Source of the DNA: Candidatus Berkelbacteria bacterium
Lineage (GTDB): Bacteria > Patescibacteriota > UBA1384 > 2-12-FULL-50-11
Assembly (NCBI GenBank): GCA_016432625.1
Contig: CP066697.1
Span: forward strand, 151,113 to 215,112
DNA length: 64,000 nt
Direction of reading: 5' to 3'
A program made the position numbers and the translations under genes. The notes below the pieces were generated by a model, which made no database searches, was not told where the DNA came from, and saw only the letters and a list, made by a program, of their open reading frames with translations. Each line of letters begins with the position of its first letter. The first letter of the stretch is position 1. Below are positions 19,983 to 62,677 of the stretch, in pieces.

Positions 19983-20000
19983 GTCAAGTTTGCTTTACAG
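19983..20000. promoter_or_regulatory. Copy of the 18-bp inverted repeat TGTCAAG-TTTG-CTTTACA (2 mismatches to TGTAAAG-N4-CTTTACA) in the divergent intergenic region between the J-domain gene and the ybjQ-like gene; overlaps a TTGACA -35-like hexamer (minus orientation) and sits just upstream of a TATAAT at 20001-20006
   Basis: Read directly: ...aaatgTCAAGtttgCTTTACAgagTATAATgaattcATG. Same half-sites as the dnaK promoter (26102-26119) and the XRE-Hsp20 gene promoter (51618-51635). Confidence 0.55.
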
Positions 20001-20014
20001 AGTATAATGAATTC

Positions 20015-20338: not shown

Positions 20339-20565
20339 TGGACGAGGTAAAAAAAGTTAAAGTGAATATGCCTAGAGGCATTACGATCGTAAACCGTTAC
20401 AAAGGACCGGGCGGTGGCGCTTATTTCCTGGGTTTCCTAGGGGCTTTCATTTACTACATGCAAACGGCGGCTACTTTCGGCGATGGTGTTATCGGATTTC
20501 TAAAAGCCCTTGTCTGGCCGGCGTTTTTGGTTTATCACATCTATAAATTCTTGGGGCTCCAGTAG
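20338..20565 (+). CDS. Small membrane protein, translationally coupled to ybjQ-like (TAATGG overlap)
   Basis: 75 aa, two hydrophobic helices. Confidence 0.45.
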   Translation: MDEVKKVKVNMPRGITIVNRYKGPGGGAYFLGFLGAFIYYMQTAATFGDGVIGFLKALVWPAFLVYHIYKFLGLQ

Positions 20566-20574
20566 AATTTAGGC

Positions 20575-21240: not shown

Positions 21241-21324
21241 TGCTTTGCAATTTTACTACAAAGCGGTCCAGCATAAGAGGAATGGGGAGGGTACAGGAAT
21301 CCGCCCGGCGAGTGCCGAGCGGAT

Positions 21325-21588
21325 CTAGTGCGGCCAAAGCACCCGATAGATAGTGATGCTGGCCATGACGACTGGGAAAACGATGCCAAAGAAAGCGATG
21401 AACTTTTTCAGGCCGTTGCTGTGGAAGTATGCCCTCCAGTAAACAACGAAGACGAAGACGTTGATCGCCAGCTGAATGACAGCGGCGATCTGGTTTGCTC
21501 CCTGGAAAACATGGGAGAAGTTGGCGATCAAGAAGAACGCGAACCCCATGCTTCCGGAGAGAATCATCCAGAACGTACTGTTTTTCAC
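21325..21588 (-). CDS. Small hypothetical membrane protein
   Basis: 87 aa, three hydrophobic segments, AT-rich region. Confidence 0.4.
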   Translation of the reverse strand: MKNSTFWMILSGSMGFAFFLIANFSHVFQGANQIAAVIQLAINVFVFVVYWRAYFHSNGLKKFIAFFGIVFPVVMASITIYRVLWPH

Positions 21589-22038
21589 TGCTATTCAACC
21601 TCCGAAGTCTGGTGGATTATATTCCTCAAACCTGTAAAAGTCAAGGATTGGGGCGGCTTTTTCTCGGGTATGCGAAAAGAAAAATAGAGAGCCTAATTAC
21701 CTTTTACTGCATAGAAAAGGAACTGAAGTATAACTTTTGGTTATTCTACAGCCAGTCTCTTTTTCGGCAAACTCACGAATCTCCGTTTCAAACGCTTTTC
21801 TTTTGGCCGTCTCTAACTGAGAGTTGGTCAGAGTACGTGTTACGGAGCTTGATATATTCATCAATCGTGTAGGCCCTCTGCCAATCACACTCCAACACAT
21901 CAACCAAATGGAAAAAATTATTTTCAAGTTTCGCTCTGCGCTCATCAATCTGCTCCCGCGAGCGAAGATCACGGATACCTAAGTATTTTTCATAGATTCC
22001 TTTCGCTCTCAGATGGAAAGAATCCAGTTTGGTTTCGA

Positions 22039-22530
22039 TTAACTCTCTATTTTTCCACCAAGAATTACGGGCGGTATCCAGAATTTCGTTGGCGTGAGTC
22101 CGTACACATTTGCCCTGGCATCTTCTTTCGGCCTGAGCGAAAAATCTTCTGTGACGCTTTCAAAAGTTCCTTTTGGGCATAATATTACTACCACCTTTGG
22201 CATAACGGCCGTGCCGAATTGAATCAACCTGTTCTGGTAGTGAGTCTTTGTCCAATAGAATAAAACTTCAAGGCCTTCACTCTTTTCTTGAAAGGCTTCC
22301 CAGAAGTGTTGAAAATCCATTTTATTGGTAATAAACCCAGAAATTTCTCGATCAATACCCTTGCACCTCAGCGAGATAGTGGCGTAGGGAACGTCTTTTA
22401 CCTTAGATATTACTTCGCCATTTTCAACCGTACTACCAAGCGGTCGGAGTTCGTTAGCTATACATAACTTGCTATCGATAACCGACCACTCATTATCTCT
22501 AAGTAGGACAACTTCTTCTGAGTTATTCAT
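22039..22530 (-). CDS. Hypothetical protein (AT-rich island)
   Basis: 163-aa ORF, no recognisable motif. Local GC noticeably lower than the window average. Confidence 0.4.
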   Translation of the reverse strand: MNNSEEVVLLRDNEWSVIDSKLCIANELRPLGSTVENGEVISKVKDVPYATISLRCKGIDREISGFITNKMDFQHFWEAFQEKSEGLEVLFYWTKTHYQNRLIQFGTAVMPKVVVILCPKGTFESVTEDFSLRPKEDARANVYGLTPTKFWIPPVILGGKIES

Positions 22531-22593
22531 AGCTGAATTTTACTACTTCCTGAATTGATTCAAAGAGAACTGCTCCCTATGCATGTGCCGTTC

Positions 22594-24000
22594 TTATTCT
22601 TTGAGACCCATCTCGGACCGTATATCGCTAATAAAAGTCTTCGCTTTCTCTTCAAGTATATTTTGATCGGGCCTGACACTTGCTAGGAACAACTCGAAAT
22701 ATTTTAGTGCCTTAACTAGGTCGCGCAACTTTTTATAGGCAATGTAGCCAAGCCAAAAATGCAGTTGATTCCTATCAGGATAAGTTTCAAGGAGATTCAA
22801 ACAAAACTGTTCAACCTCTTGGATGGTAAGCCATTCTTCGGAATACTCATGCTCAACAATTTTCCTCGAGGACTTATAAGCCTCGTCGTATTCCGATAAC
22901 CAATAATGCAAAAATGCATCGCTGTACCTCCACTCCTGGGCTCCATTAGCTAAGTTCTTCGCAAGCGCGATTTCTTGTTGCGCCGCCTTCGCATCACCTT
23001 CCTTGAATAGTTCCACGGCTCTTACTAGATGAAAACCGTACTGATTAGGGTAATAACTCTGTGCTCTTTTCGAAAACGTTGAGTACGACGCTAGGTCATC
23101 CTTCAGTAAAGACATTCGTGCTTTTAGCAAATAACTACCTGCCAATAATTGTTTGGCCTTGATCTTTACTTCCTCAATATTTGGAGGTAAATCATTTCTT
23201 TGAAAAAGCTTATCGTCAATTAGGCGCTCGTGGAGGGTTATTGCGAGGTTGACGTCACCAGATAAGAATGCAGCAATACCTACTATGTACTTTGCCGATA
23301 AATAAACAAAATCAGCGGTTAAGGCGAACCCTCTAAATCGGAATTCTTCTAACATCTCCACTTCTTTAGGTAGGGATCTTACAAAGTCGGCAGATAATTT
23401 AAACTGACTGTTTTTGTCTATCGGTGAGTGCACTACTAAACCACTTAAATCAATAAAAATCTTTTCCTTTTCTCCATCAGGACGTTTTTTAACGTCTCCG
23501 AAGACGAAATAGTGTCCATGGACTGTCTCATTTATTGTTCGCGCAATTTCATAGTTTTTTACTTTCTCGGCAATATGGTTGGGTACTTTTACTACTGTGA
23601 CTAACTCACTCAATCCATCTGCGACTAAGTTTTTTCTTACCTGGTCAAGAAAGTCCTTTTTAGCATCTATTTCCTCGAGGTTATCCTCGCTGTAAAGCGC
23701 GAAAACTAATCCAAGCTTCCCCTCGGGTATTTTTGGAAGCCACTTCCTTACTACTATCCAAGCAACTATCTCAATTAAGAGTAATACTACGAGGCCCCAT
23801 CTTAGATAACTGACTCCAAAAAGTTCTAAGAGGGGTTTATAGATAGCCGCAAATATAATGCCCGTTAACACTACCGTGACTAATAATCCGCGAAAACTTG
23901 CAAAGTTAATTCTGATGTATGACAAATAGGGTCGCAGTTTATCAATTGGCATCAGCCTATAAAGAAAGAGAGCTGATAGCTCTCTTTCTTGTTTCTCCAA
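22594..24000 (-). CDS. Hypothetical membrane protein: two N-terminal TM helices plus a large helical/TPR-like cytoplasmic domain
   Basis: 468 aa. TM segments at ~35-85. C-terminal helical repeats (…YWLSEYDEAYK…FWLGYIAYKKL…). AT-rich. Stop abuts the dnaK stop region. Confidence 0.5.
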   Translation of the reverse strand: MEKQERELSALFLYRLMPIDKLRPYLSYIRINFASFRGLLVTVVLTGIIFAAIYKPLLELFGVSYLRWGLVVLLLIEIVAWIVVRKWLPKIPEGKLGLVFALYSEDNLEEIDAKKDFLDQVRKNLVADGLSELVTVVKVPNHIAEKVKNYEIARTINETVHGHYFVFGDVKKRPDGEKEKIFIDLSGLVVHSPIDKNSQFKLSADFVRSLPKEVEMLEEFRFRGFALTADFVYLSAKYIVGIAAFLSGDVNLAITLHERLIDDKLFQRNDLPPNIEEVKIKAKQLLAGSYLLKARMSLLKDDLASYSTFSKRAQSYYPNQYGFHLVRAVELFKEGDAKAAQQEIALAKNLANGAQEWRYSDAFLHYWLSEYDEAYKSSRKIVEHEYSEEWLTIQEVEQFCLNLLETYPDRNQLHFWLGYIAYKKLRDLVKALKYFELFLASVRPDQNILEEKAKTFISDIRSEMGLKE

Positions 24001-34972: not shown

Positions 34973-37297
34973 GTGAACTTTATAACTAACGGCCAATACG
35001 TCGCGCAGGTTTCCCAGACAGGCGGCGGGCATTCGTTTATTGAAGACTCGGCCTATAACCGTATAACCAGGGAAATCCCGGGCGATAACCTCATCGAAGA
35101 CCGCCCCGGGCGTTACGTCTATATCCGCGACAACGATACCGGCGAGTATTGGGGCTTAACCTGGCAGCCGGTCATGAAGAAACTCGACCATTTTCAGACT
35201 CGTCACGGCATCGGCTACACCACCATTGAATCGTCGTACGACGGCATTGATGGCTCAATTACTTATTTCGTGCCACTTGAGGACCCGTGTGAGATCTGGC
35301 AGATCAAACTCAATAACTTTACAGAGCGCAAAAGGCGCCTAAGTATTTTTGTTTTCGTTGAATGGGATCTAGGCGTCAGACATGAAAATATCCTTGAGGC
35401 AGCCTTTAACGATTTGTTTAACGACATGATCTTTAAAGACAACACGATTTTCGCGACCAAACGGCGCTGGAACACTGCCGAGCGGGAGGGTCTGTATTGG
35501 GATAAAGTAGCGTTTCTGACTATGGATCATCAGGCGGATAGTTTTGACTGCATTAAAGAAAGATTCACCGGTATGTACGGTGACATTATTGCGCCGAAGG
35601 CTGTCATCGAAGGTAAATGCACCCGGAGTCAGGGATTAGGTCACCGCGCCGTTGGCGTTTTGCAGAAAAATATCACTCTCGGTCCGAAAGCGCCGGCGCA
35701 TTTCAACGTAATTCTCGGCGCTGGTTACACAAATCCCGAAGCAAAGAGCTTCGTTCAAGCCCAAACTTCGGGCATGCGTCACGCGGCCAAAATCATTGAA
35801 AAGTATCAGAAACCAAGCGCCATCGAACAAGCTTTTGAAGCTGTTCGCGCTCACTGGGAAGAGTATAACGGCCACGTTATGAGTAAATCGCCCGACCCGT
35901 TATTCGATTATTCATTTAATTATTGGAACAAGTATCAGTCTTGGATTACCAGCCACTGGTCTGAGATGGACACATATTATATCGGCGGCGGCGGCACGAT
36001 CGGTTTTCGAGACATGGCGCAGCACTTGATCGGCGTCATGCCAAACGATATCACCCTCGCTCGTAAACGTCTGCTCGAATTGCTCAGCTACCAATTCAAA
36101 GAGGGTCGTACAGTACATAACTGGGACAAGCTGACCAAGCGGGGTCATGTCACTGACCATTCCGACGACACTCAGTGGCTGATTACCTCAGTGTTGTTTT
36201 ACCTGAAAGAAACCGGCGACCTCAAATTCCTCAAAGAGGAAGTCGATTACTACGACACCGGACGGGCCACGATTTTACATCACGTCATTCGAGCGATGGA
36301 TTACAGCTTGAAGCACTTGTCCAGCCGCCATTTGCCGTATCGGATGAGCGCCGACTGGAACGACGCCCTAAATGGGGAACACGAGAGCAAAGGCGAGAGC
36401 CAGATGGTTGCTTGCCAGATTTGTTACAACATCCGCGAACTGGCGCCGTTCTTAAATGAGATCGGCGAGCACGAGTTGGTTGATAAATACCAGCGGATTT
36501 ATAAGAAAATAAAAGAATCTGTTAATCACTATCTTTGGGATGGCGGTTGGTACACTCGGGGTACCGCCAAAGACCATTCCGCTATTGGCTCAAAAAAGAG
36601 TAAAGCCAACAAGATCGATATTAACGCCCAAAGTTGGGCGGTGCTAAGCGGTGTTGCCGACAAGCCCCGCGGTATTAAGGCGATGGACGCGGTCTGGAAA
36701 CACCTCAACACCAAATACGGTCCGGCGATGTTTTTACCTTCATATCAACACCCAGAAGAACGCTACGGCGTGATCTCGCAATTTACGCCTGGCACTAAAG
36801 AGAACGGCGCTATCTTTAACCATCCGGTGGCCTGGGCGGTTATTGCTGAAACGGTTCTGGGGCGAGGGGATCACGCCTATAAGTTCTGGAAAGAGACGAG
36901 TTTCGCCTATCGAGGTCAGGAACCAGAGCTCTATCGCGTCGAGCCGTACGTCTACGCAGAGTTTGTTTACGGTCCGGAGCACCCGGAGTTTGGCCGAGGG
37001 TCTTTCACTTGGGCAACTGGTTCCGCCTCCTGGTTCTGGCGCGCCTGCTTAGATTACATCCTAGGTCTGCAGCCGGTTTTGGGTGGTTTGAAAATCGACC
37101 CATGCTTGCCCAAAGACTGGCGGCAGGTTGAGATCGGCCGCAAGTTCCGTGGTGCCGATTATCACATCCGGATTCAAAATCCGTTCCGCGTTAATCGTGG
37201 CGTTGACCGAATTCTCGTTGACGGCGTCAGAATTACCGGCAACGTTATCGCTCCGTTTAATTCCGGCGTCCACTTTGTCGAAGTAGTCTTAGGCTAA
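34973..37297 (+). CDS. GH94-family disaccharide phosphorylase (cellobiose/cellodextrin-phosphorylase-like). The true N-terminus probably lies upstream of the annotated GTG (see findings)
   Basis: Sequence just upstream in the same frame (EQYGEFSHQGDEYIIYRPDTPKPWVNFITNG) matches the conserved GH94 N-terminus (GxFDDxxREYVITxPxTPxPWINYLG). Followed by GYTTIESSYDGIDGSITYFVPL and the large (alpha/alpha)6 catalytic region. Confidence 0.75.
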   Translation: MNFITNGQYVAQVSQTGGGHSFIEDSAYNRITREIPGDNLIEDRPGRYVYIRDNDTGEYWGLTWQPVMKKLDHFQTRHGIGYTTIESSYDGIDGSITYFVPLEDPCEIWQIKLNNFTERKRRLSIFVFVEWDLGVRHENILEAAFNDLFNDMIFKDNTIFATKRRWNTAEREGLYWDKVAFLTMDHQADSFDCIKERFTGMYGDIIAPKAVIEGKCTRSQGLGHRAVGVLQKNITLGPKAPAHFNVILGAGYTNPEAKSFVQAQTSGMRHAAKIIEKYQKPSAIEQAFEAVRAHWEEYNGHVMSKSPDPLFDYSFNYWNKYQSWITSHWSEMDTYYIGGGGTIGFRDMAQHLIGVMPNDITLARKRLLELLSYQFKEGRTVHNWDKLTKRGHVTDHSDDTQWLITSVLFYLKETGDLKFLKEEVDYYDTGRATILHHVIRAMDYSLKHLSSRHLPYRMSADWNDALNGEHESKGESQMVACQICYNIRELAPFLNEIGEHELVDKYQRIYKKIKESVNHYLWDGGWYTRGTAKDHSAIGSKKSKANKIDINAQSWAVLSGVADKPRGIKAMDAVWKHLNTKYGPAMFLPSYQHPEERYGVISQFTPGTKENGAIFNHPVAWAVIAETVLGRGDHAYKFWKETSFAYRGQEPELYRVEPYVYAEFVYGPEHPEFGRGSFTWATGSASWFWRACLDYILGLQPVLGGLKIDPCLPKDWRQVEIGRKFRGADYHIRIQNPFRVNRGVDRILVDGVRITGNVIAPFNSGVHFVEVVLG

Positions 37298-41382: not shown

Positions 41383-42366
41383 TTGAAGTTTCTCCGATCT
41401 CTAAAGGAATACCTCCTCTTTGCCTGGGAATACCTGACGCATGACCCGGGCAAGGGGCGCTACGCCCTCCACATGTTCGCCAACACGGCCGACATGTACT
41501 TTTTCGTTAACAGGGGTGGCGTCTTAAGGGGATCAGAGAACCCGGCCACTCAACTGACTCGTCAACGGCTCGGCGGCAGCTACAAACCGCTCCTGCCTAA
41601 TGAGGACCTCGGTATGGTTATCGAGTGCCTCGAGACTGGACAGCCCAAGGAAATCTTTGGGTTATTCGACGGCAAACGTGCCGTCTGGACCTGCACGCCT
41701 AGGCTCGGAACCGGCGAAGTGATGGTTTGCCTCTCGGTTGAACGAGGGGAGCTAATCCACCAAGCCACGATCCACCCCTTGAGCGGCCTACGTAACAGGT
41801 TGGCCTTCGAGACTGACTTAGACCGGATGCCTTCGGTCGAGAACGGCACCTACGAAGCCATAGTGTTCATTGATGTCGACAACTTTGGCGACTTCAATAG
41901 CAGCCTTGGCCACGAAATAGGTGATTTCGTCATCCGCGAGGTGGGTCATGCCACCAGGGAACAGTTCCGCCAGATCGACATGTCGTACACCTACGGTGGC
42001 GATGAGGAGGTCGTGCGAATGCGCGAGATACCTGGCGAATTTGCTGAAGCGAAGAAGGTCGTGGAACAGACGACCAAACTGCTTCAGCGCAGGATCGCTC
42101 GCATCAAGCACAAGGGCAAAGCACTTGGCATCACCGTCTCGATTGGCGTTACGCTTTTCGAGAGCGGTGAAACCGATCTGCAGCAGCGGATCAAGGAGGC
42201 CGACGACGCCCTCTACTTCGCCAAGGAAACAGGACGAGACAGGGTCTGCTTCTTCCAAGAAGTCGATCCGTCCTGGCTATCCGAACGCCGCAAAGTCGCT
42301 CCGACTATCGGAGCGACGGAGCAGAAACGGCCTGTTGTAGTGAAAACCGCAAAGAGCCCGGCCTAG
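41383..42366 (+). CDS. GGDEF-domain protein (diguanylate-cyclase-like; A-site reads GGDEE) with an uncharacterised N-terminal domain; TTG start
   Basis: VFIDVDNFGDFNSSLGHEIGDFVIREV...YGGDEEVV...ITVSIGVT...ADDALYFAKETGRDRV. GGDEF fold with F-to-E substitution in the signature. Confidence 0.6.
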   Translation: MKFLRSLKEYLLFAWEYLTHDPGKGRYALHMFANTADMYFFVNRGGVLRGSENPATQLTRQRLGGSYKPLLPNEDLGMVIECLETGQPKEIFGLFDGKRAVWTCTPRLGTGEVMVCLSVERGELIHQATIHPLSGLRNRLAFETDLDRMPSVENGTYEAIVFIDVDNFGDFNSSLGHEIGDFVIREVGHATREQFRQIDMSYTYGGDEEVVRMREIPGEFAEAKKVVEQTTKLLQRRIARIKHKGKALGITVSIGVTLFESGETDLQQRIKEADDALYFAKETGRDRVCFFQEVDPSWLSERRKVAPTIGATEQKRPVVVKTAKSPA

Positions 42367-42428: not shown

Positions 42429-43349
42429 TTGATGCTGAAGCGAAAAATAATCCTCGAACCTCGCGATCTTTGGTGGGAAGCTCAGGGCGTGTTTAATCCG
42501 GGGGTCGCTGAATATAATGGTCGCACCTATATGCTTTATCGCGCTTTTGGCCGCGATAATTTGTCGCGTCTTGGCCTAGCAATCTCAGAGGACGGCGAGC
42601 ATTTTGAACGATTTGATCAACCAATGCTCGAAGCGGATGAGCATAATCCGTACGAGCGTCTTGGTGTTGAAGACCCACGAATTACCAAAATCGACAAGGA
42701 TTATTACATCACCTACATCGCCGCCTCCGTCTACCCGGCGGACTATAAAGGGATGAGCGCGCACTCTTTGAATACCCCTGGGGTACCTTGGCGAGTGAGA
42801 GTTTGCGGATACCGAACCCGCGACTTCCGGACCTTCGAGAAGCTCGGCGTTCTCATTCCTAATTTAGACACCAAAAACCCAGCGCTCTTTAGCCGCAAAA
42901 TTCAAAATAACTATTGGTTAATTCATCGAATATCGCTGGCCATCTACGTCTCAGTTTCGACAAACTTGAAACAGTTTGGCGGTGGCTATCAACTGATGCA
43001 GCCGGAAACGGAGTGGGAAGCGGCCAAGGTTGGGGTTGCCTGCCCACCGCTCGAAACTGAGCACGGCTGGCTGATGTTTTATCACGGGGTTGACGAGAAA
43101 TCGGTCTACCATATCGGTGTCGCCCTCCTTGATCGTCAAAACCCCGCCTTTATCCTGAAGCGAACTAAAACGCCGCTCATGAGCCCAGAAGAGCCCTGGG
43201 AGAAGAAAGGCTATGTAAATAATGTTGTGTTCGTAACTGGTGTAACTGAGCGTCGGGGCATGCTGAATTTGTACTATGGGGGTGGCGATAAGGTAGTCGG
43301 TGTTGCTAAAATCTCAATTGATGCAGTACTTGAATCTCTCGATCGCTAA
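42429..43349 (+). CDS. GH130-family glycoside phosphorylase/hydrolase (beta-mannoside-phosphorylase-like, DUF377)
   Basis: FNPGVAEYNGRTYMLYRAFG...LGVEDPRITKIDKDYYITY, the 5-bladed beta-propeller GH130 pattern. Confidence 0.7.
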   Translation: MMLKRKIILEPRDLWWEAQGVFNPGVAEYNGRTYMLYRAFGRDNLSRLGLAISEDGEHFERFDQPMLEADEHNPYERLGVEDPRITKIDKDYYITYIAASVYPADYKGMSAHSLNTPGVPWRVRVCGYRTRDFRTFEKLGVLIPNLDTKNPALFSRKIQNNYWLIHRISLAIYVSVSTNLKQFGGGYQLMQPETEWEAAKVGVACPPLETEHGWLMFYHGVDEKSVYHIGVALLDRQNPAFILKRTKTPLMSPEEPWEKKGYVNNVVFVTGVTERRGMLNLYYGGGDKVVGVAKISIDAVLESLDR

Positions 43350-43641
43350 ATCAGGCTACGATCGGTGGCGATCGCTATCCGAAGAACATCGCCTAACTGT
43401 TAGATGGGCAATGGTGACGGCCATGACGGTGGCTGTCTACTTTTGGGCGCTATTCGTTATGCCAGAGAATCAGACGGTTATGCGTTATTTCTTGAGCCTT
43501 TATGTTGTTGATAGTATCGTTTTCTTCCTTATTTTTCGCGACTATCAAGCCCTTGGCAAGACAATGCTAGTCTTCCTTTTCGCCTTAGAATTGGTCGTCG
43601 CGCTTTACTACGGCTTCAATTATTTGAGCGCTGGGGTATGA
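43300..43641 (+). CDS. Small membrane protein preceding the GT2 gene
   Basis: 113 aa, three hydrophobic helices. Overlaps the GH130 end and the GT2 start. Confidence 0.4.
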   Translation: MLLKSQLMQYLNLSIAKSGYDRWRSLSEEHRLTVRWAMVTAMTVAVYFWALFVMPENQTVMRYFLSLYVVDSIVFFLIFRDYQALGKTMLVFLFALELVVALYYGFNYLSAGV

Positions 43642-45155
43642 AGCCTTTCCACGTTCGGTTGTGGGAGGTAATTCCTGGCTTCATGACCTGGTCAACGATC
43701 ATTCTGCTACTGCTCTTCTCTTTTAGCGAGCCGTATATAGTTGCGACGATCGTGATGATTTACTCGATCTACTGGTTGATTCGAATTTTTATCATGACAG
43801 GCTTTCTAATTGCCGGCTTTGTCCGCTACCGTCGCGAAATTGCCATTGATTGGCAGCAACGCCTCAAAACCGAATTTCCGCTTCGCGAGGAGGAGCTATA
43901 TCACTTGGCAATCGTACCCTCTTACAAAGAGGATATCTCGATCTTACGCCACACTTTAGACTCAATCCGGCGCAGTCATTACTCGCACCGAAAAATGATC
44001 GTGGTTTTGGCTTTTGAGGAACGTGACAAAGAGCTTGCGCCGCAGTACGCGCCGATTCTAACTCGTGAATACGAACACCAATTTGCGAAGTTTATGGTTA
44101 CGCACCATCCGACTGATATCCCGGGTGAAGTTCGCGGCAAAGGGCCGAATATTACCTGGGCGGCACGTCAGATAAAGGAATGGATTGACGACAAGAAAAT
44201 TCCTTATGAAAAAATTATTACCACCACCTTAGATGCGGATAACCGCGTCGACCCACAATATTTCGCGAATGTCGCTTGGGCATTTTTGAGTTCGGACGAC
44301 CCGCATCATAAAACGTTCCAACCGTTGCCGATGTTCTTCAATAATATTTGGCAAGTGCCATTGCCGGTCAAAATTACGGCTCTGAGCTCCACCTTCTGGC
44401 AAATGATTCAGGCGCTTAGGCCGCACCATGCCCGTAATTTTTCCGCTCACGCCCAGAGCTTTAAGGCTTTGGTCGAAACTGACTTCTGGTCAGTTACTAC
44501 TGTGGTCGAAGACGGCCATCAGTATTGGCGGTCATTCTTCCGCTTTAACGGTAATCACCGGATTGTGCCGATCTTTGTCCCGGTCTATCAAGACGCTGTG
44601 CAGGGGGAAAATATGTACGATACATTTCGCGAACAGTACCTGCAGCGCCGTAGGTGGTATTGGGGCGCTTCAGACATCCCTTACGTATTTCATATGTCGT
44701 TTCGTAACAGCAATATCCCCTTTTTCTACAAATGGCTGCAACTAGGACGACTGGTTGAGGCCCATTACTCTCTGGCGACTCAGTCCTTTATTCTGTTGAT
44801 CGGATGGTTGCCGTTGCTGGCGGTTTCCGAGTTTCGTACGACGGTTATTGGCTATAATTTCCCCGCCGTCTATCGCGCGGTTCTGGCCGCGGCTTGGATC
44901 GGCATGATTGCCAACATGACAATCGCCTCAAGCTTGGTACCGCCACGCCCAGGTAGTCGCGGCATGTACTGGCTTATGCTGGCTCGCGAGTGGGTTTTTG
45001 CACCGATTGCCATGCCGATCTCCGGAATTTTGTTTTCTGCCTTGCCGGCGATAGACTCACAGACCCGGATGTTAATAAATAAACCCTTTACCGTTTTCAA
45101 CGTCACGAAAAAAGCCGCAATACCGAGCGGAGTGTTACAAAAGAGCAGTCCTTAA
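43638..45155 (+). CDS. Processive family-2 glycosyltransferase (cellulose-synthase-like; membrane-embedded)
   Basis: N- and C-terminal TM helices. DxD (TLDADN). QYLQRRRWYWG matches the Q(Q/R)xRW motif of processive beta-glycan synthases. Confidence 0.7.
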   Translation: MKPFHVRLWEVIPGFMTWSTIILLLLFSFSEPYIVATIVMIYSIYWLIRIFIMTGFLIAGFVRYRREIAIDWQQRLKTEFPLREEELYHLAIVPSYKEDISILRHTLDSIRRSHYSHRKMIVVLAFEERDKELAPQYAPILTREYEHQFAKFMVTHHPTDIPGEVRGKGPNITWAARQIKEWIDDKKIPYEKIITTTLDADNRVDPQYFANVAWAFLSSDDPHHKTFQPLPMFFNNIWQVPLPVKITALSSTFWQMIQALRPHHARNFSAHAQSFKALVETDFWSVTTVVEDGHQYWRSFFRFNGNHRIVPIFVPVYQDAVQGENMYDTFREQYLQRRRWYWGASDIPYVFHMSFRNSNIPFFYKWLQLGRLVEAHYSLATQSFILLIGWLPLLAVSEFRTTVIGYNFPAVYRAVLAAAWIGMIANMTIASSLVPPRPGSRGMYWLMLAREWVFAPIAMPISGILFSALPAIDSQTRMLINKPFTVFNVTKKAAIPSGVLQKSSP

Positions 45156-45216: not shown

Positions 45217-45831
45217 CTAGTTGTTCTTGAGGTAGAAATTGTGGCTGCAGCTTTGCACGAAGTCGTCTTTGTCGCAGAGCTTGAACCCTAAGCTACCGCC
45301 GGTCTGGAATTCGGTGCTATATGGCTTCAGGTCGGTTGCGGGATCGGGCGCGCTATCGCTCATGTTGACCGATCGCTCAAGCCGACCCATAAGGTAGAAA
45401 CCTTTCGGCGTTTGTGACACGCCTTCGCTGACGGCAGTGTAGATGAATTGCCCGAAGTTGGCGTCATAACACTGTTCGCCGACGTGGAGCTGGTAGACGG
45501 GATCCTGAGGAATAGTGGTGACGTAGACTGGCGCGAGGAATTCTTTGTCGCCGTACGGCGGACAGCCAGAACCGCCAATTTTCTCAAGCTGCCAGCGGGC
45601 GATAAATAATCCACGGGGATTGGCGGTTATCGGCGGATAGTGTCTATTCTCGAGGTAGTACTGCTCTAGACCGTTCTTTATAAGTTGGAGGTCGGTGATT
45701 CGTTGATAATCGCGTGAGCGCACTAACGACGAGTTGTACATGTAGGTAGTAATGGTCACCAGGATCCCGATTATTGAAACAACCGTTAGCACCTCGACTA
45801 AAGTGAAGCCCCGTCGCAATGTTGAACGCAT
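45217..45831 (-). CDS. Type IV pilin / pseudopilin-like protein with a prepilin N-terminal cleavage/methylation motif
   Basis: MRSTLRRG|FTLVEVLTVVSIIGIL, the class III signal peptide (G-F-T-L-x-E). Start moved to the ATG at 45831. Confidence 0.7.
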   Translation of the reverse strand: MRSTLRRGFTLVEVLTVVSIIGILVTITTYMYNSSLVRSRDYQRITDLQLIKNGLEQYYLENRHYPPITANPRGLFIARWQLEKIGGSGCPPYGDKEFLAPVYVTTIPQDPVYQLHVGEQCYDANFGQFIYTAVSEGVSQTPKGFYLMGRLERSVNMSDSAPDPATDLKPYSTEFQTGGSLGFKLCDKDDFVQSCSHNFYLKNN

Positions 45832-45881
45832 AAAGCAAGTGTGCCGCAGAATTGCCCGGAGCGCAAACAAACGCTGGTACA

Positions 45882-46376
45882 ATGCTTCTAATGAGCGATC
45901 TATTGTGGATTTTCAGTTCGGTGGTGCTGATGTTGCCGGCTGTGGTAGGTATTTTCATTCCGGTTGTTCCTGGGATACCGCTGATGTTCTTAGTGGCGTT
46001 AGTTTTTGGTTTTATTAATAAGTTCGCAGCATTGACTGCTAGTGAGCTTGTAATCTTGCTGACAATTGCCCTGGTTTCAATCGCTGTTGATTATCTTGCC
46101 GGGGTCTTGGGCGCCAAATACTCCGGCGCCTCAGCCCGTGCCTTGGTAATTGGTTTCATCTGTATGATTCTCGGCGTGCTTATCTTGCCGCCGTTTGGTG
46201 GCTTGATAGGTTTGTTTATCGGCGTATTGGTGGCGGAGCTCGGAAATCGCACTCACCGCGAAGCAATCAGGGCGGCAACTGGCAGTCTAATCGGCGCCTT
46301 AACGGGAATCCTTATCAATTTCTTGCTAGCGCTACTCTTTATCACCCTTTTCATTATTTTTGCCTGGCCGCGCTAA
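45882..46376 (+). CDS. DUF456-family membrane protein
   Basis: Four TM helices with conserved PVVPG and GxLGA motifs typical of DUF456. Confidence 0.5.
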   Translation: MLLMSDLLWIFSSVVLMLPAVVGIFIPVVPGIPLMFLVALVFGFINKFAALTASELVILLTIALVSIAVDYLAGVLGAKYSGASARALVIGFICMILGVLILPPFGGLIGLFIGVLVAELGNRTHREAIRAATGSLIGALTGILINFLLALLFITLFIIFAWPR

Positions 46377-46409: not shown

Positions 46410-47192
46410 ATGGAAGTAATGAAACTCAGGCGGTTACTGGCTTTAACTGTCGGGCGCAATCTGCTTATTGCCGCGGTTTTTGCGTCGGTTGGCGTCGTGC
46501 TACTCTTGACCGCTCCCAAGGAGAAACCTGTACAGGCCCAAGTTGGTGGGCAATACAGCGCCAATTGGGAAGCGACCCACCTACTTATCGCTCGCTTGGT
46601 TCAACCTGACCTGTTAACTAAACAGAAGTGTGAAACCGTGAACTCAGTGACTCGCCCTTACGGTGAGCCCGCTAACTCGGAAGTGGCCATCGGCCCGTCC
46701 CGCTGGGAGGTAAGAGGTCAGATGGATGACGGCTCTCGGTTTAAAGAAATCTGGACCACGGCCCAGATCCCTGCTCGGATCACTTACGGTGAGGGAACCT
46801 GGTACACGAACTGGTTTTTCAACGGTTACTGCAGTACACCTGGCTTAAAGTTAAAGATTATGGGTAACCAGAACCAGGAAGACTGGATCATCGGCTTCAT
46901 GCAGGACAGAAGCCTAGGAATGTCGGCGATGGAATTTCGGACAATCGGTGTCAACGACGCGATGACTAATACTAGTAACTATCCTGATGGTAACGTACGG
47001 AACATCAGTAAAACGACTTCTTGCCAACGAACAAACCGCTGTGTCTTTACAACCGGTCCGTATGCCTGGACGACTTTCCACGAAATCGACCAAGCTACCG
47101 AAAGTAAGTACGAGAATGTCGGAACCTTAATACCTGCTCACTGGGATGTGAGGGGTACGTTATGTCCTGTGGGGGATAACCGTTGTGATTAA
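46410..47192 (+). CDS. Secreted Cys-containing protein, paralog 1 of 3 (novel family)
   Basis: Signal peptide. Shares with the two downstream ORFs the motifs W(E/T)V(R/K)G, FKE(I/V)W(T/S)..Q(I/L)P, TTSCQ, HEID and the C-terminal GD(N/T)RCD. Six conserved Cys. Confidence 0.6.
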   Translation: MEVMKLRRLLALTVGRNLLIAAVFASVGVVLLLTAPKEKPVQAQVGGQYSANWEATHLLIARLVQPDLLTKQKCETVNSVTRPYGEPANSEVAIGPSRWEVRGQMDDGSRFKEIWTTAQIPARITYGEGTWYTNWFFNGYCSTPGLKLKIMGNQNQEDWIIGFMQDRSLGMSAMEFRTIGVNDAMTNTSNYPDGNVRNISKTTSCQRTNRCVFTTGPYAWTTFHEIDQATESKYENVGTLIPAHWDVRGTLCPVGDNRCD

Positions 47193-47469
47193 TATGACGC
47201 CGCAAAAGTTTTCGAACGCAGTTTTGGCCTTGAGCGTGCTAGTTTTGCTTTTGGGTATCTCAACATATTGGCAAAGTAACGCGGAGCCAAATCTTGACTC
47301 AAAGACCTCGGTTACAGAGCGGGACGCCGCACTTTCGAGAGCTAGAATCGGCGACGGCACGTATAGTTTCTCAACTAGCTTCATCCCAGGGCTTGGCTAC
47401 ATCGGCTCTGCCGAGCAGACCAGACAAAAATTTAAGCAAGATAATAAAGGAGCGATAACCAACCAATGA
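47185..47469 (+). CDS. Small secreted hypothetical protein between paralogs 1 and 2
   Basis: 94 aa with an N-terminal signal-like hydrophobic segment. Confidence 0.35.
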   Translation: MINMTPQKFSNAVLALSVLVLLLGISTYWQSNAEPNLDSKTSVTERDAALSRARIGDGTYSFSTSFIPGLGYIGSAEQTRQKFKQDNKGAITNQ

Positions 47470-48170
47470 AGCGTGCTGCTAGTCTGTCCGTCATATTGCT
47501 AGGGATACTAGGTTTAGTTCTGGTTAATTCGCAACAAGTGAGCGCTCAAAGTAGCGACTACACAACCAAGTGGGACGCAAATAGTCTAATCGTTGGGACG
47601 TTGCACCGCCCGATTACTGGTAACTCCGAGGGCGATTGCGTTAATGGCACGCTTCTTGGTAATTACGGCGACCCGGCCGGATCAGAAATCGCCTTCGGTA
47701 TTAATCAGTGGACCGTCAAGGGGCGTATCACTGGCTCGACAAAATTTAAAGAAGTCTGGTCGGCACCGCAGTTGCCTTATGCTTACACCTACGGCGGCAC
47801 TTGGAATGGCAGCTGCCAAAACCTTAAGCTAATTGTCTCCGGCAACAACAGCATGACTGATTGGCTGATGGGCTACATTTCTAATGAAACATATACGCGG
47901 AGCGTAATGGCTTTTCGCTCAGTTGGTATCTCGCAAGGTATCAATAATAAGGTTAACGTCGACGTTTCTCGGGCTGACAACATCGGCAAAACGACGTCAT
48001 GCCAACGCCAGAACAACTGTTTGTATGCCACTGGCGGCTATGGCTGGACGGCTGCGCACGAAATCGATGACGCCCATGCCTGGAAGCCGATCAATGTTGG
48101 TATATTAATGCCTCTCAAGTGGACGATCAGTGGTGATATCTGCGACGGTGGAGACACTAGATGCGATTAA
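47466..48170 (+). CDS. Secreted Cys-containing protein, paralog 2 of 3
   Basis: Signal peptide (LSVILLGILGLVLVNSQQVSAQS). Same conserved motifs and Cys spacing as paralogs 1 and 3. Confidence 0.6.
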   Translation: MKRAASLSVILLGILGLVLVNSQQVSAQSSDYTTKWDANSLIVGTLHRPITGNSEGDCVNGTLLGNYGDPAGSEIAFGINQWTVKGRITGSTKFKEVWSAPQLPYAYTYGGTWNGSCQNLKLIVSGNNSMTDWLMGYISNETYTRSVMAFRSVGISQGINNKVNVDVSRADNIGKTTSCQRQNNCLYATGGYGWTAAHEIDDAHAWKPINVGILMPLKWTISGDICDGGDTRCD

Positions 48171-48901
48171 AAATCATGGCTAATAGATTAGGCATTTTGA
48201 GGGTCTTGGTGGCGGTGCTAGTCCTTTTGGTGGGGTCAATCTTAGTCGGCGACGTGCCGGCCGTAGCACAAGCCAGTGACTACACAATCAACTGGCAAGC
48301 CACTGATCTAATCGTCGCCCGACTTAAGAAACCGAATTACGCACATAACCAGGCGGAGTGCACAACTTGGCGGCTTGACCCCCTTGGTACTCCCATCGAT
48401 TCTGAAGTGGCTATAGGTGTCCATAAGTGGACTGTCAGAGGCGAGCTTCCAGGCTCAGCAAGATTCAAAGAAATCTGGAGCACTCCCGCATTACCGAGAG
48501 CTTTCACATACACAGGTGATTTCATCAATGGCGAATGTCGAAACGGTCGCTTGATTATCGATGGCTTGGCAGGTCCTAACGACTGGCTGACCGGATATCT
48601 CAATGTAAGTAACCTTGGAGTCTCAGCCATGGAAATAAGAACGGTGGGTGTCACAACTGAGGTCGGACATCACAATCTAGACCCAGGCAGTGTTCGCAAC
48701 ATCGGCAATACTACATCATGTCAGGCGAGTGGGGGCGATACTGATCGCTGTACCTACACGACCGGTGCTTATAGTTGGCTCACTCTCCACAGGTTTCAGT
48801 CGGGAATGGATAAGAAGCACATGAATCTCGGTACGATGATCCCGCTCAAATGGTCTGTCAGCGGTACCTTCTGTGAACCTGGCGACAATCGCTGCGACTA
48901 A
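48161..48901 (+). CDS. Secreted Cys-containing protein, paralog 3 of 3
   Basis: Signal peptide. Conserved motifs. Ends GDNRCD like paralog 1. Confidence 0.6.
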   Translation: MRLKIMANRLGILRVLVAVLVLLVGSILVGDVPAVAQASDYTINWQATDLIVARLKKPNYAHNQAECTTWRLDPLGTPIDSEVAIGVHKWTVRGELPGSARFKEIWSTPALPRAFTYTGDFINGECRNGRLIIDGLAGPNDWLTGYLNVSNLGVSAMEIRTVGVTTEVGHHNLDPGSVRNIGNTTSCQASGGDTDRCTYTTGAYSWLTLHRFQSGMDKKHMNLGTMIPLKWSVSGTFCEPGDNRCD

Positions 48902-48915: not shown

Positions 48916-49053
48916 GCGGTCCCAACGGGAAGTCTCGCAGCTGAGCTGCTCGGAAAGCTCCTACGCTAACGCTCCGTCGCTACCGAACCCGCGGGTTCGA
49001 CACCGCGAGCAGGTAGTAAACACGGCCCGGAAATTCCGCGCCGTGTTCCCTAG
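48916..49053 (-). repeat. Partial tRNA-Glu T-arm/3'-end copy (CGGGTTCG...ACTTCCCGTTGGGACCGC) with a ~50-nt insert in the T-loop, lying downstream of the real tRNA-Glu
   Basis: GCGGTCCCAACGGGA occurs on the + strand at 48916-48930 and 49053-49067. The intervening sequence is homologous to the one in the tRNA-Lys locus. Confidence 0.65.
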
Positions 49054-49127
49054 CGGTCCCAACGGGAGTCGAACCCGTGATTTCCGGGATGAAAACCCGG
49101 CGTCCTAGGCCACTAGACGATGGGACC
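49054..49127 (-). tRNA. tRNA-Glu (anticodon TTC)
   Basis: GGTCCCA-TC-GTCTAGTGGCCTAGGAC-G-CCGGG-TTTTCAT-CCCGG-AAATC-ACGGG-TTCGACT-CCCGT-TGGGACC-G. Confidence 0.85.
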
Positions 49128-49224: not shown

Positions 49225-50082
49225 TTGATGAGGGGGTTGCTACTTTTTTCGATCGCCGTTTTAGCCGCTGCGGTAGGAGTGGTTTTATTTCTTGTGTCAT
49301 ACGGCGGAAAGATCGCCGGGACGGAGCAACCTAATAGTAAAGTTGTCGCGGCGGATATACCTATAAAAACGCCAGAAACACGCCGTCGCGCGGAAGTGCC
49401 CATCCTGATGTACCACTACATTCGGGATTATAAGAGCGAAACGGACCCGCTCGGCGTCCAACTATCTGTTTCACCGGCGGCGTTTAGGGCTCAGCTGCAA
49501 GCCCTAAAGCGCGACGGCTATTCGACGATTAGTCTATCGGAATTCGCCAAAGGTAATTTTGGCTCTAAGCCGATCGTCCTGACTTTTGATGACGGGTACG
49601 AGGACCACTTCACTACAGCGTTACCGATCCTGCAGGAACTCAACTACACTGCTACCTTTTTTATCGTCAAAAATTTCATTGGGCGTCCTGGTTACTTGAG
49701 TGCTGCGCAAATAAGCATGCTACAGGACGCCGGTATGGAAATAGGCGGCCATTCCACAAATCACGCTAACCTCTCGAAAATGACTTATGAGAAGGCCGTC
49801 GCCGACATCTCCTCTAGTCTAGCTGGTCGCGACAACGTCTTTTCTTACCCCTCAGGGCAGTATACTTACGAGACCCTGGACGTAGTTAGCGGCCTGGGAG
49901 TAACGGCTGCGGTGACAACCGAACAGGGCGTCGCCACAACCGAAACCAACCTGCTGGAGCTGCCGCGTATTAGGGTAAAAGAGAAGACTGATCTAATTAG
50001 CAAGATCGCCGAGCTTAGAGACATCCAAGTACCGTCGAAGGCTTCACAGCCACCGGCCGCTGAGGTAGAATTACAGGAGTAG
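49225..50082 (+). CDS. Polysaccharide deacetylase (CE4 / NodB homology domain), membrane-anchored
   Basis: N-terminal TM helix. LTFDDGY...H motifs of the NodB domain (PIVLTFDDGYEDHF ... GGHSTNHANL). Confidence 0.8.
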   Translation: MMRGLLLFSIAVLAAAVGVVLFLVSYGGKIAGTEQPNSKVVAADIPIKTPETRRRAEVPILMYHYIRDYKSETDPLGVQLSVSPAAFRAQLQALKRDGYSTISLSEFAKGNFGSKPIVLTFDDGYEDHFTTALPILQELNYTATFFIVKNFIGRPGYLSAAQISMLQDAGMEIGGHSTNHANLSKMTYEKAVADISSSLAGRDNVFSYPSGQYTYETLDVVSGLGVTAAVTTEQGVATTETNLLELPRIRVKEKTDLISKIAELRDIQVPSKASQPPAAEVELQE

Positions 50083-50900: not shown

Positions 50901-51605
50901 CTACTTCTTCTTCACCTGAATCTTCGTGGTCTTCGGCTTAGCCGGTTCCACTTTCGGCGCCACTATCTTAAGCGTCCCGTTTTCGAGTTTGGCCTCAACC
51001 TTGTCTTCTTTGATCGGCGTGGCAAATCGAATTGAACGACTGAACTCACTGTGTTGCCACTCACGACGCACAACATTCTTGCCTTCTTTCTCATTTTCGT
51101 CGTGCTTTTTAGTGCCAGTGATAGTTAGTGTATCTTCCGTCATCTCGATCTGAACATCGTCTTCGGCGTAACCCGGAACCTGTAATTCGATTTCGTACTC
51201 TTTGTCGGTTTCATGAATATTCATGGCGCCGGCAACGGTGCCCAGTGCTCGCGACCAATCACCACGACCAAAATTACGGTTGACCATCTCGCTCATCTCT
51301 TCTTGCATTCGATCCATTGCCTGAAACGGACTCCATGGTGCTAATTGCATCTTCGACTGCTCACCTCCTTCCTGAATTTCGTTATCGGTTGCTTGCTGAA
51401 CAATGTTTATGCCTTCGATTAAATCCGGCAAATTACAGCGGAAAAATTCCATCAGTGAAATCAAAACTGGCGCGCTAGGCAGATACTCGCCACGTTCAAG
51501 CGAGATTATCGATTGGCGAGATACGTTTAATTCCCGAGCCAATTCTTCTTGGCTCAGATCTCGCTGGGTGCGTAACTGGCGTAGTAATAAACGGAATCGA
51601 GGCAT
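50901..51605 (-). CDS. Fusion protein: N-terminal XRE-family helix-turn-helix DNA-binding domain plus C-terminal Hsp20/alpha-crystallin (small heat-shock protein) domain; candidate novel heat-shock transcriptional repressor
   Basis: N-term LRQLRTQRDLSQEELARELNVSRQSIISLERGEYLPSAPVLISLMEFF (HTH_XRE). C-term ALGTVAGAMNIHETDKEYEIELQVPGYAEDDVQIEMTEDTLTITGTKKHDE...EWQHSEFSRSIRF...GTLKIVAPK (alpha-crystallin domain). Same operator in its own, dnaK and J-domain-gene promoters. Confidence 0.75.
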   Translation of the reverse strand: MPRFRLLLRQLRTQRDLSQEELARELNVSRQSIISLERGEYLPSAPVLISLMEFFRCNLPDLIEGINIVQQATDNEIQEGGEQSKMQLAPWSPFQAMDRMQEEMSEMVNRNFGRGDWSRALGTVAGAMNIHETDKEYEIELQVPGYAEDDVQIEMTEDTLTITGTKKHDENEKEGKNVVRREWQHSEFSRSIRFATPIKEDKVEAKLENGTLKIVAPKVEPAKPKTTKIQVKKK

Positions 51606-53578: not shown

Positions 53579-53965
53579 TGGTGGACCTGCCGGGAGTTGA
53601 ACCCGGGTCCGAGAACCTACGAACGAAGACGTCTACAAGCGTAGAAAGTTTAAAGTCTTAGCAGCTGGGCTTGAGAGCTTTCAAAAAACCCGACTGAGCA
53701 ACATCTTATTCTGAGGAGTTGTACCGATGTGCGCACAATCCCGGTTCTACTTTTTGACGCCTCGTTACCTTAGTAGAAGTCAGGTGACGAAACGGCATTG
53801 GCCGTTAGGCTAATGCTGTTGCAAAAGAAGGAGTCGCGAACAAGTTCGCAACACGAGCTTTTGCAGTTTCAAATGCGTTTGCACGTATTTGTTTTGCGCT
53901 CTAAGGCAGGCGCGTCCGCTTGCAGTCCTCGCTGTAAACGTTCCCGTCGAAGCCAGTACAGGCCC
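53579..53965 (-). ncRNA. ssrA: tmRNA (ssrA)
   Basis: The - strand 5' end is GGGCCTGTACTGGCTTCGACGGG (tRNA-Ala-like acceptor with G3·U70 wobble plus the conserved UUCGACGGG box). The 3' end is GGACCCGGGTTCAACTCCCGGCAGGTCCACCA (T-arm plus acceptor plus encoded CCA). Internal reading frame ...GCA ACA GCA TTA GCC TAA (tag ending ATALA*). Confidence 0.8.
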
Positions 53966-61601: not shown

Positions 61602-62024
61602 ATGACTCCTCGCCAAGTGTTGTATGCTAAAGCGGCCTTCGTAATATCCTTAGTGGCGACAATAGGCAGCTTATATTTCAGTAATGTCGCGCTCTACGCG
61701 CCGTGTGACCTTTGTTGGTACCAACGAATCGCCATCTACCCATTGTTAGCGATCGTTGGAGTTGGCCTAATAAGACATGATAACAATTTACATTTTTACG
61801 CTCTGCCGCTGCTAATGTTTGGCTTAATCGTGTCTGTCTATCAGAATTTACTCTATTACGGCATCGTCGCTGAGAGTACGGCAGTTTGCGGCTTGGGCGT
61901 ATCGTGCGCCGCTAAATACATTGAATGGCTCGGTTTTATAACAATCCCCCTGCTATCACTTATCGGATTGATTACTCTAACGGTGTTAATGTTTGCTTTC
62001 AAAAAAGAAGGAGCGACTAAATGA
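61602..62024 (+). CDS. dsbB: Disulfide bond formation protein B (DsbB/BdbC family)
   Basis: APCDLCWYQRIAIYPL (CxxC plus YQR) and four TM helices. Confidence 0.7.
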   Translation: MTPRQVLYAKAAFVISLVATIGSLYFSNVALYAPCDLCWYQRIAIYPLLAIVGVGLIRHDNNLHFYALPLLMFGLIVSVYQNLLYYGIVAESTAVCGLGVSCAAKYIEWLGFITIPLLSLIGLITLTVLMFAFKKEGATK

Positions 62025-62677
62025 GTTCTGATATGAAGTTTGTCGGTGCGATTGTAGTAGTTGCAGTTCTAGCGATCGTCGGATTTGTTATTTTTGGCAA
62101 AAACGCTAAAACCAGCGATCCCGCGGCACAGGTTGAGGCGGCCGCCTTGACTGACGCTGGCCAGCAAGTCCGTCCTGATTCATACAAAAAAGGTATCGAA
62201 AACGGCAAGGTGATCGTAGTTGAGTGGGGAGATTATCAGTGCCCAGCCTGCCAAGCGGCAGATACCGAAGTAACGCAGATAGTTAGCGATTTTGCCGACC
62301 GCATTACATTTGTTTTCCGCCATTTCCCGTTGCCTAACCATAAATTCTCACAACTTACGGCGACTGCCGTTGAGGCAGCAGGGGCGCAAGGTAAATATTG
62401 GGAGATGCACGCCAAGCTTTATGGTAATCAAGAGGAATGGAGCACGGCTTCTACCTCAAAAGCGGTCGAACTTTTTGTCGGTTACGCTAAGGATCTTGGA
62501 ATCGACACCGAAAAGTTCCGCGCTGACTTGGTGGGACGTGTCTACAACGACAAGATCGCTCGGGATCTCGCGGACGCCGCGGCGATCGGTGTCAGTAAAA
62601 CCCCAACCTTCTTCGTTAATAGCGTCGAAGTTGGCCTGGATGGTTTGCGAACAGCAATTGAAGAGGGGTTAAAGTAA
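62021..62677 (+). CDS. dsbA: DsbA-like thiol:disulfide oxidoreductase (thioredoxin fold), membrane-anchored
   Basis: WGDYQCPACQ (CPAC active site). ATGA overlap with dsbB. Confidence 0.75.
   Translation: MSSDMKFVGAIVVVAVLAIVGFVIFGKNAKTSDPAAQVEAAALTDAGQQVRPDSYKKGIENGKVIVVEWGDYQCPACQAADTEVTQIVSDFADRITFVFRHFPLPNHKFSQLTATAVEAAGAQGKYWEMHAKLYGNQEEWSTASTSKAVELFVGYAKDLGIDTEKFRADLVGRVYNDKIARDLADAAAIGVSKTPTFFVNSVEVGLDGLRTAIEEGLK

Follow-up and report, generated by a model that had tools for sequence, protein, structure and literature searches.

What is the function of three adjacent genes for hypothetical proteins in the genome of a Candidatus Berkelbacteria bacterium (GenBank assembly GCA_016432625.1, contig CP066697.1)? 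The genes lie in a 64,000-nucleotide stretch of this contig (positions 151,113 to 215,112 of the forward strand), hereafter the window, and coordinates given without a locus name refer to it. A large part of bacterial diversity belongs to the Patescibacteria, whose cells live attached to others and whose surface proteins are mostly unannotated. We found that the three genes are diverged paralogs of an exported, predicted all-beta family, and that a gene for a small protein with a membrane anchor accompanies this family in every locus compared. The reading that we tentatively favour is a lineage-specific, two-protein extracytoplasmic module, in which one or more tethered beta proteins would form a non-enzymatic surface binding or scaffold complex.

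The four genes are all on the plus strand, in the order paralog 1, small partner, paralog 2 and paralog 3. Paralog 1 (46419..47192) encodes an exported six-cysteine protein of 257 amino acids (aa) from the ATG at 46419, or of 260 aa from 46410; the former is the likelier start, with a GGAG 11 nucleotides (nt) upstream and the same start in the public gene call (P0004). The small partner gene (47194..47469) encodes 91 aa from the ATG at 47194 (NCBI HZB70_01860) or 94 aa from the GTG at 47185. Paralog 2 (47466..48170, 234 aa) and paralog 3 (48161..48901, 246 aa) are identical to HZB70_01855 and HZB70_01850, both annotated as 'hypothetical protein', in a Candidatus Berkelbacteria metagenome-assembled genome (MAG) with a contig of 768,791 bp. 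The original prediction made for this DNA had listed three consecutive open reading frames (ORFs) of 260, 234 and 246 aa, with a small ORF of 94 aa between the first two copies. All of them were found on the plus strand (the small ORF at 47185-47469), and the first copy is probably 257 aa long.

The start codon of the small ORF lies 2 nt past the copy 1 stop, its own stop overlaps the ATG of copy 2 (ATGA), and copies 2 and 3 share 10 nt, the same overlap as at locus L002. This packing fits translational coupling and, as far as the sequence can tell, the region is a tightly packed operon. A six-frame search of the 64 kb window with profile hidden Markov models (HMMs) revealed exactly three copies of the family (copy 1, E 3.6e-62) and one copy of the small ORF (E 1.5e-31). 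The G+C content of the operon equals that of the remainder of the window and genome. Promoter and terminator scans of the region gave scores no better than those of shuffled sequence.

Pairwise BLASTP comparisons showed the three copies to be 39-43% identical along the entire mature length. The E values, 5e-56 and 3e-59 for copy 1 against copies 2 and 3 and 8e-61 for the remaining pair, are far beyond chance and indicate paralogy. The motifs W(E/T)V(R/K)G, TTSCQ, T(T/A)GxY(A/G/S)W and GD(N/T)RCD are common to all three. Most of the shared motifs proposed originally were thus present, but three elements fail in one copy each: HEID is restricted to copies 1 and 2 (HRFQ in copy 3), the Q of xxQ(I/L)P is replaced by A in copy 3, and the residue before GDNRCD in copy 1 is V instead of P/G. 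The copies differ mainly in loop insertions: copy 1 has 7-8 additional residues behind beta 5, and copy 3 has four within the C179-C185 loop (C-x(5)-C). In a neighbour-joining tree, copy 1 groups with the first copy of L001 (L001:8653-9417), a Patescibacteria MAG locus syntenic with the window, copy 3 groups with both L002 copies, and copy 2 is the most divergent. As the identity is only 39-43% and copies 1 and 3 group across genomes, the duplications are old and preceded the split of these genomes. The proposed tandem triplication therefore holds as a description of three tandem paralogs but not as a recent event; the copies appear to have been retained since an old expansion. Copy number varies between genomes, which had been suggested as a check: three copies in the window, two in L001, two in L008 and one in the rest of the ten loci compared below.

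The family is small. A word-indexed search of 5.8 billion proteins returned only two relatives outside the window, and pattern scans of genome and metagenome contigs returned the same two. An exhaustive HMMER search with a six-sequence profile against 1.84 billion cluster representatives recovered 76 proteins at E<=1e-3, 26 of them also at E<=1e-10, and almost all were 205-290 aa long; a 1651-aa repeat protein among the matches was judged probably spurious and dropped. Where members carry a name, which only a few do, they are assigned to Berkelbacteria, Saccharimonadales or 'Patescibacteria group', and one member is located on an 804-kb contig. Alignment of 80 members (A5; residues are numbered as in copy 2) showed an N-terminal hydrophobic segment at the start, an optional C-terminal C..C, numerous conserved Trp, Tyr and Phe residues and the motifs YxxxWxA, IGVxxWxVxG, FxExW, WLxG, C..C, TGxYG(F/W) and PLxW(T/S)VxG. 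Only E96, W98, G190, Y192 and W219 are invariant in all 80 sequences.

The original statement that no characterised domain is recognisable withstood every search. Pfam gave no match to the three window copies at E<=0.1, and searches of Pfam and NCBIfam with all 80 members (E<=0.01) and with ten members (E<=10) gave nothing beyond single chance-level matches. PHROGs and PADLOC had no match for the three copies or the small ORF, the family profiles matched no PDB sequence, and literature searches on secreted cysteine proteins of Berkelbacteria and Saccharibacteria retrieved nothing about this family. The family appears to be undescribed and Patescibacteria-specific. Two further candidates were rejected. 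The two W-x-V-x-G strands had raised the possibility of an internal domain duplication, but an hhalign comparison of the two halves, N against C, aligned only 10 residues at 38% probability. The Southlakia epibionticum genes SEML1_0850/0851/0852 looked similar by gene order; however, SEML1_0850 is an ADP-ribosyltransferase, and consequently transposon sequencing (Tn-seq) essentiality from that organism is not transferable to the family.

All three copies carry an export signal, with an N-terminus rich in K/R, then a hydrophobic stretch and finally A-x-A and a Q. The hydrophobic stretch is present in 78 of the 80 aligned members and is preceded by K/R in 72, while A-x-A then Q is invariant within the close subfamily. 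The proteins are probably exported by Sec and cut after A-x-A; a simple signal-peptidase site heuristic applied to the 80 members did not resolve the exact cleavage site.

Six cysteines align in the three copies and in four more members from two other genomes. The number of cysteines in the mature part is even in every one of the 80 members (two in 17 members, four in 40, six in 22 and ten in one), and cysteine columns are gained and lost as pairs. C179 and C185 are present in 69 and 66 members, respectively, and C226 and C233 in 44 each, while C58 and C117 occur together only in the nine closest members; some members retain a single pair. Conservation of six cysteines, as initially proposed, is therefore true of close homologs but not of the whole family, in which only two of the three pairs are widespread. 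The window also encodes, outside the operon, the oxidative folding pair reported in the original prediction at 61602-62677, and Pfam identified both genes: DsbB (61602-62020, plus strand; DsbB E 4.7e-11) and DsbA (62021-62677, plus strand; Thioredoxin_4 E 7e-22, DSBA E 1e-14). A VKOR and DsbA pair is likewise encoded about 5 kb from the family gene in the Saccharimonadales locus L005. As the cysteines come in pairs and the proteins carry an export signal in a genome that encodes DsbB/DsbA, three disulfides are the natural reading for the window proteins, with predicted pairs 58-117, 179-185 and 226-233 assigned from co-occurrence. The proteins have the features of Dsb substrates (an export signal, cysteines that are even in number and co-vary pairwise, and a Dsb oxidase encoded in the genome), and the disulfide bonding suggested at the outset agrees with this pattern.

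Structure was predicted for copy 2 with AlphaFold2, as a monomer. A six-sequence alignment gave an unusable model (predicted local distance difference test, pLDDT, 45.6), and the 80-sequence alignment gave a confident one (pLDDT 92.8, predicted template modelling score 0.83, no segment below 50). The model is all-beta, with 13 strands, several long hairpins (e.g. 74-88/92-99 and 207-216/220-226) and helix limited to the signal peptide and one short turn. Foldseek found nothing in the PDB at E<=1e-3 (template modelling scores of about 0.1), and a search of a viral structure library with the same model gave no match. Modelling of one paralog, which had been recommended, thus did not place the family in a well-characterised domain; 'no similar solved structure' in the PDB and the viral library would be the appropriate description of the model, not 'new fold'. 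The weak Foldseek matches were mostly up-and-down and membrane barrels (PloI4, Rv0813, DUF3224, OmpA, AlkL), together with one aerolysin-type crystal protein (2d42, E 0.16). Such barrel matches fit a large antiparallel meander sheet and prove nothing further.

The same matches raise the possibility of a ligand-scavenging carrier. In this role the beta protein, as a curved sheet or a barrel lined inside with aromatic residues, would capture a hydrophobic or glycan nutrient (for example a host lipid) and pass it to the membrane via the small partner. The up-and-down all-beta model, best matches that are weak and mainly lipocalin-like, fatty-acid-binding-like or membrane barrels, and the many conserved Trp, Tyr and Phe residues are in keeping with this idea. 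Patescibacteria are not known to synthesise lipids, which would also be in its favour. However, no transporter gene is consistently adjacent, and we consider a carrier role quite improbable.

The principal new finding is about the small ORF. The original prediction had mentioned it in passing, as an incidental neighbour; this view did not survive the comparison of loci. Profile search recovered 12 small-ORF homologs of 80-110 aa, none of them fused to another domain. Ten loci had sufficient flanking DNA for comparison: the window, L001, L005, L007, L008, L009 (a second Berkelbacteria), L011, L013, L015 and L016. A small-ORF homolog lies directly beside a family gene in all ten (downstream in nine, upstream in L011), and no other gene shows this strict linkage to the family. 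The wider contexts differ, with a block of deacetylase, cyclophilin, helix-turn-helix and HSP20 genes in six loci, an Obg block in L011 and L013 and another setting in L016, and the pairing is therefore not mere inherited gene order. One public gene call of 373 aa (P0023, L008 245-1366) joins a family member and the small ORF in a single protein. We rejected this fusion as a gene-calling artefact, because the translation reads through two in-frame stops; the true arrangement in L008 is family, small and family as separate genes. The call could mislead domain-fusion analyses.

The small partner comprises an N-terminal membrane anchor followed by a predicted extracytoplasmic C-terminal segment SVTERDAALSRARIGDGTYSFSTSFIPGLGYI. 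In it, a few basic residues precede a single hydrophobic helix, after which come a variable linker and the motif (S/T)ER.LA(I/L)..A...G..Y.F.T.FIPG(I/L)G, the core of which can be written ER.LA...A...G..YSFTTSFIPGIG. The conserved segment is a short helix followed by a strand-like YSFTTSFIPGIG motif. As positive residues precede the single helix, the conserved C-terminus should be outside the cell (positive-inside rule). Family and small genes occur at ratios of 3:1 in the window, 2:1 in L001, 2:1 in L008 and 1:1 elsewhere, suggesting that one anchor would serve several paralogs.

A pair made of an exported protein and a small membrane protein may also be a toxin with its immunity protein. Under this explanation the large protein would be a secreted toxin or host-directed effector that damages or permeabilises a host or competitor, and the small protein would confer immunity or help export. 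The family is exported, disulfide-stabilised by prediction and about 23 kDa in size, with tandem diversified paralogs and a small single-pass membrane protein adjoining; its model has long beta hairpins, and the weak structural matches include membrane beta-barrels and the aerolysin-type 2d42. Cultivated Patescibacteria have an epibiotic or parasitic lifestyle (PMC10633639), which would suit such an effector. However, there is one small gene per two or three paralogs rather than one cognate immunity gene for each toxin, the distribution is not mobile or sporadic, and the small protein, unlike typical immunity proteins, has an outward motif with strong conservation between classes. The genes are in conserved synteny with housekeeping genes, with no mobile-element signature or G+C shift. 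Toxin families of PADLOC, PHROGs and Pfam gave no match, and a match to the aerolysin/ETX-MTX2 fold or sequence family was likewise not found. The original prediction had named both secreted toxins/effectors and surface-layer components as candidates; conserved chromosomal synteny and the 3:1 gene ratio favour a surface component, and a toxin is in our judgement unlikely.

In the two-protein surface module that we favour, the large component would be an all-beta protein of about 22-25 kDa, exported by Sec and stapled by as many as three disulfides that DsbA/DsbB would introduce. The small component of about 90 aa would have its N-terminal helix in the membrane and its conserved C-terminal segment facing outward, and would bind the beta protein or proteins and tether them at the cell surface. 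Once tethered, the complex would serve the envelope as a binding unit or scaffold without enzymatic activity, with the cell's own wall glycan or a host-cell surface as its target, and the three old paralogs would present different exposed loops on one shared anchor. As only E96, W98, G190, Y192 and W219 are invariant in the 80 sequences, we see no catalytic constellation. In the beta3/beta4 hairpin register of the copy 2 model W82 and V84 are opposite E96 and W98, an arrangement that may represent an aromatic-plus-acid patch of a kind characteristic of binding sites. This patch would be built from the invariant Glu and Trp, which are placed on adjacent strands of a single hairpin.

Several points weigh against the surface module. 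Contact between the beta protein and the small protein is something that we infer. The binding role is argued from absent catalytic residues and from context, for a fold without a characterised neighbour, and the invariant Glu could be catalytic. The large protein may lose its N-terminal segment by cleavage, as the sequence suggests, or keep it as an anchor. The polysaccharide deacetylase gene described below is absent from the flanks of the module in four of the ten loci (L001, L011, L013 and L016). Finally, the family, with 76 clusters at E<=1e-3 among 1.84 billion, is too rare to belong to the envelope of all Patescibacteria.

The neighbourhood of the module is rich in envelope functions, namely an anchored polysaccharide deacetylase, an anchored cyclophilin and glycosyltransferases of the GT2-like and PMT_2 types. 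The membrane-anchored deacetylase is of the NodB type (49225..50082, plus strand; Pfam Polysacc_deac_1 E 1.2e-22) and also follows the module in L005 (after a gap of 24 nt), L006, L007, L009 and L015, making a functional link of the module to cell-wall glycan possible. The synteny of the module is conserved between Berkelbacteria and Saccharimonadales loci. Conserved synteny and genome-like G+C indicate that the module is a core gene set and not mobile cargo; it is vertically inherited, in a region rich in genes for the envelope and for extracytoplasmic folding.

This setting bears on the proposal that the large protein is a new extracytoplasmic enzyme acting on wall or surface glycan (e.g. 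a glycan-cleaving enzyme with a single Glu), working alongside the deacetylase and with the small protein as tether or regulator. The single invariant Glu stands within a conserved aromatic strand (FxExW), the deacetylase gene is immediately downstream in L005 and near in five other loci including the window, and glycosyltransferases and a GH130 enzyme are encoded nearby. However, only one polar residue is invariant in the 80 sequences, and distant members no longer have the His of HEID. Profile and structure searches found no sequence or fold similarity to hydrolase or lytic transglycosylase families, and old multi-copy arrays with diverging loops typify binders more than housekeeping enzymes. 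We regard an enzymatic role as improbable.

Upstream, a type IV prepilin gene (45217-45831, minus strand; Pfam N_methyl, RRG|FTLVE motif) and a gene for a DUF456 membrane protein (Pfam E 1e-31) precede the operon, as the original prediction had described. From this position it had proposed that the family might be pilus-tip adhesins, that is, type IV pilus accessory proteins displayed on the pilus of the neighbouring prepilin. The prepilin gene is indeed two genes upstream in both the window and its closest relative L001, but these are the only loci where it is next to the module; it is about 6 kb away in L007, and in the examined flanks of L005, L009, L011, L013, L015 and L016, six of the ten loci, no N_methyl gene was called. 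The N_methyl and TIGR02532 models matched the prepilin reading frame at 45217-45882 but neither the three copies nor the small ORF; in place of a prepilin leader, each of the three copies has a signal peptide of the ordinary kind. No pilus assembly genes were detected among the window ORFs scanned. Moreover, the pilin gene is on the opposite strand and recurs in the window, L001 and L007 as a pair with the gene upstream of it, which encodes a 505-aa GT2/chitin-synthase-like membrane protein (43638-45155, plus strand); this pairing hints that the pilin is linked with glycosylation rather than with the six-cysteine family. With ordinary signal peptides and a weak link to the prepilin, the pilus-tip adhesin is unsupported, and we consider this the weakest of the ideas and very improbable.

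Other observations concern the surroundings of the module and of its relatives. A tRNA-Glu(ttc) gene follows copy 3 (49053-49127, minus strand); in the syntenic L001, which has no deacetylase there, tRNA-Glu is found at 9752-9826, between the small ORF and the second paralog. This difference in position indicates that the locus has been locally rearranged around tRNA genes. Further downstream in the window, an XRE-type helix-turn-helix is fused to an HSP20/alpha-crystallin domain (50901-51605, minus strand). The fusion, a conserved Patescibacteria gene, also lies beside the cyclophilin gene in L001, L005, L007, L009 and L015. In the Saccharimonadales-type loci L005 (7463-7903) and L007 (7428-7895), a predicted lipoprotein of about 150 aa (…VGCGGG…) is encoded directly upstream of the family gene, in the place that DUF456 occupies in the window; this lipoprotein might represent a third component, specific to that lineage. 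Near the module, both L007 (2267-5525) and L009 (3776-6551) encode a GT2 enzyme and a PMT_2 (ArnT-like) glycosyltransferase, and L007 additionally encodes a formyltransferase there. Presumably PMT_2, GT2, formyltransferase and NodB-type deacetylase resemble the Arn pathway of lipid/glycan amino-sugar modification.

Elsewhere in the window, whose genome is about 0.77 Mb, we noted genes for a GH94 glycan phosphorylase (34973-37297), a GGDEF diguanylate cyclase (41383-42366) and a GH130 mannoside phosphorylase (42429-43349). A transfer-messenger RNA gene is present at 53579-53965 (minus strand), with the tag peptide ANAFETAKARVANLFATPSFATALA. The G+C content falls to 0.41-0.46 at about 20000-24000, compared with about 0.50, and two ORFs without a Pfam match (22039-22530 and 22594-24000, minus strand) lie in this segment beside the DnaK gene; it may be acquired DNA.

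These results turn three 'hypothetical proteins' into a two-gene module with a profile of about 80 sequences, a confident model, a predicted disulfide map and a linked partner, and thus into a small, concrete target pair for expression, localisation and assays of wall, host or ligand binding. A bolder version of the surface module would be that the fold is new to solved structures and that, together with the 'FIPGIG' membrane protein, it constitutes an undescribed surface apparatus of the Berkelbacteria-Saccharimonadia for host contact or for capture of host molecules (glycan or lipid). We hold this to be rather doubtful; if true, the apparatus would be a dedicated piece of the epibiotic lifestyle. 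The known surface machinery of epibionts is a short list of type IV pili, type IV secretion and adhesins, and a new fold, or a role of the pair in host attachment, would add a new element to it. Otherwise the module would be one more lineage-specific envelope protein, of which these genomes have many.

Comparison with known systems places the module as follows. Aerolysin/ETX-MTX2 toxins and lipocalin-like barrels resemble the family at the level of the fold only, in their similar size, all-beta build, long hairpins and weak structural matches. Toxin-immunity pairs, as in large bacteriocins and polymorphic toxin cassettes, share an exported mid-size protein, a small single-pass membrane protein and tandem diversified copies. 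The module departs from them in its 3:1 or 2:1 ratio, conserved ectodomain motif, conserved chromosomal position and lack of a match to toxin or defence families. Type IV minor pilins and tip adhesins are also extracellular proteins of organisms that rely on type IV pili, and a prepilin gene is nearby here; unlike them, the family has no prepilin leader, is not in a pilin operon and shows no conserved adjacency.

The Csc/WxL surface clusters of Firmicutes encode a small WxL protein (CscB), a large WxL protein (CscC), a DUF916 protein (CscA) and a short anchored CscD (PMC1534035, PMC9772566). Homology to them was rejected: the Pfam WxL model matched none of the 80 members, and A5, compared by hhalign with five annotated small WxL proteins that Bacillus and Listeria plasmids encode, gave 0.6% probability, covering signal peptides only. 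Neither a DUF916/DUF3324 protein nor a large WxL or multidomain partner was found among the neighbours checked in the window and related loci. Given these negative comparisons and absent partners, the module is at most a non-homologous analogue. It further differs in that the family is disulfide-bonded (by prediction) and restricted to Patescibacteria, and in that its small partner has an N-terminal membrane helix and a conserved sequence, while CscD is LPxTG-anchored and not conserved. As an analogy, however, the organisation is of the Csc type. In each case a cluster contains 1-4 tandem paralogs of a Sec-exported, mostly-beta protein of about 190-280 aa, which is composed of hardly more than a signal peptide and a single domain and in whose sequence two conserved W-x-(hydrophobic) strands (here W82-T-V and W219-T-I) are widely separated; these paralogs are encoded together with a very small anchored protein (about 90-140 aa) that is thought to hold the complex on the surface. 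Among the known systems compared, the Csc/WxL cluster is the closest organisational analogue of this module.

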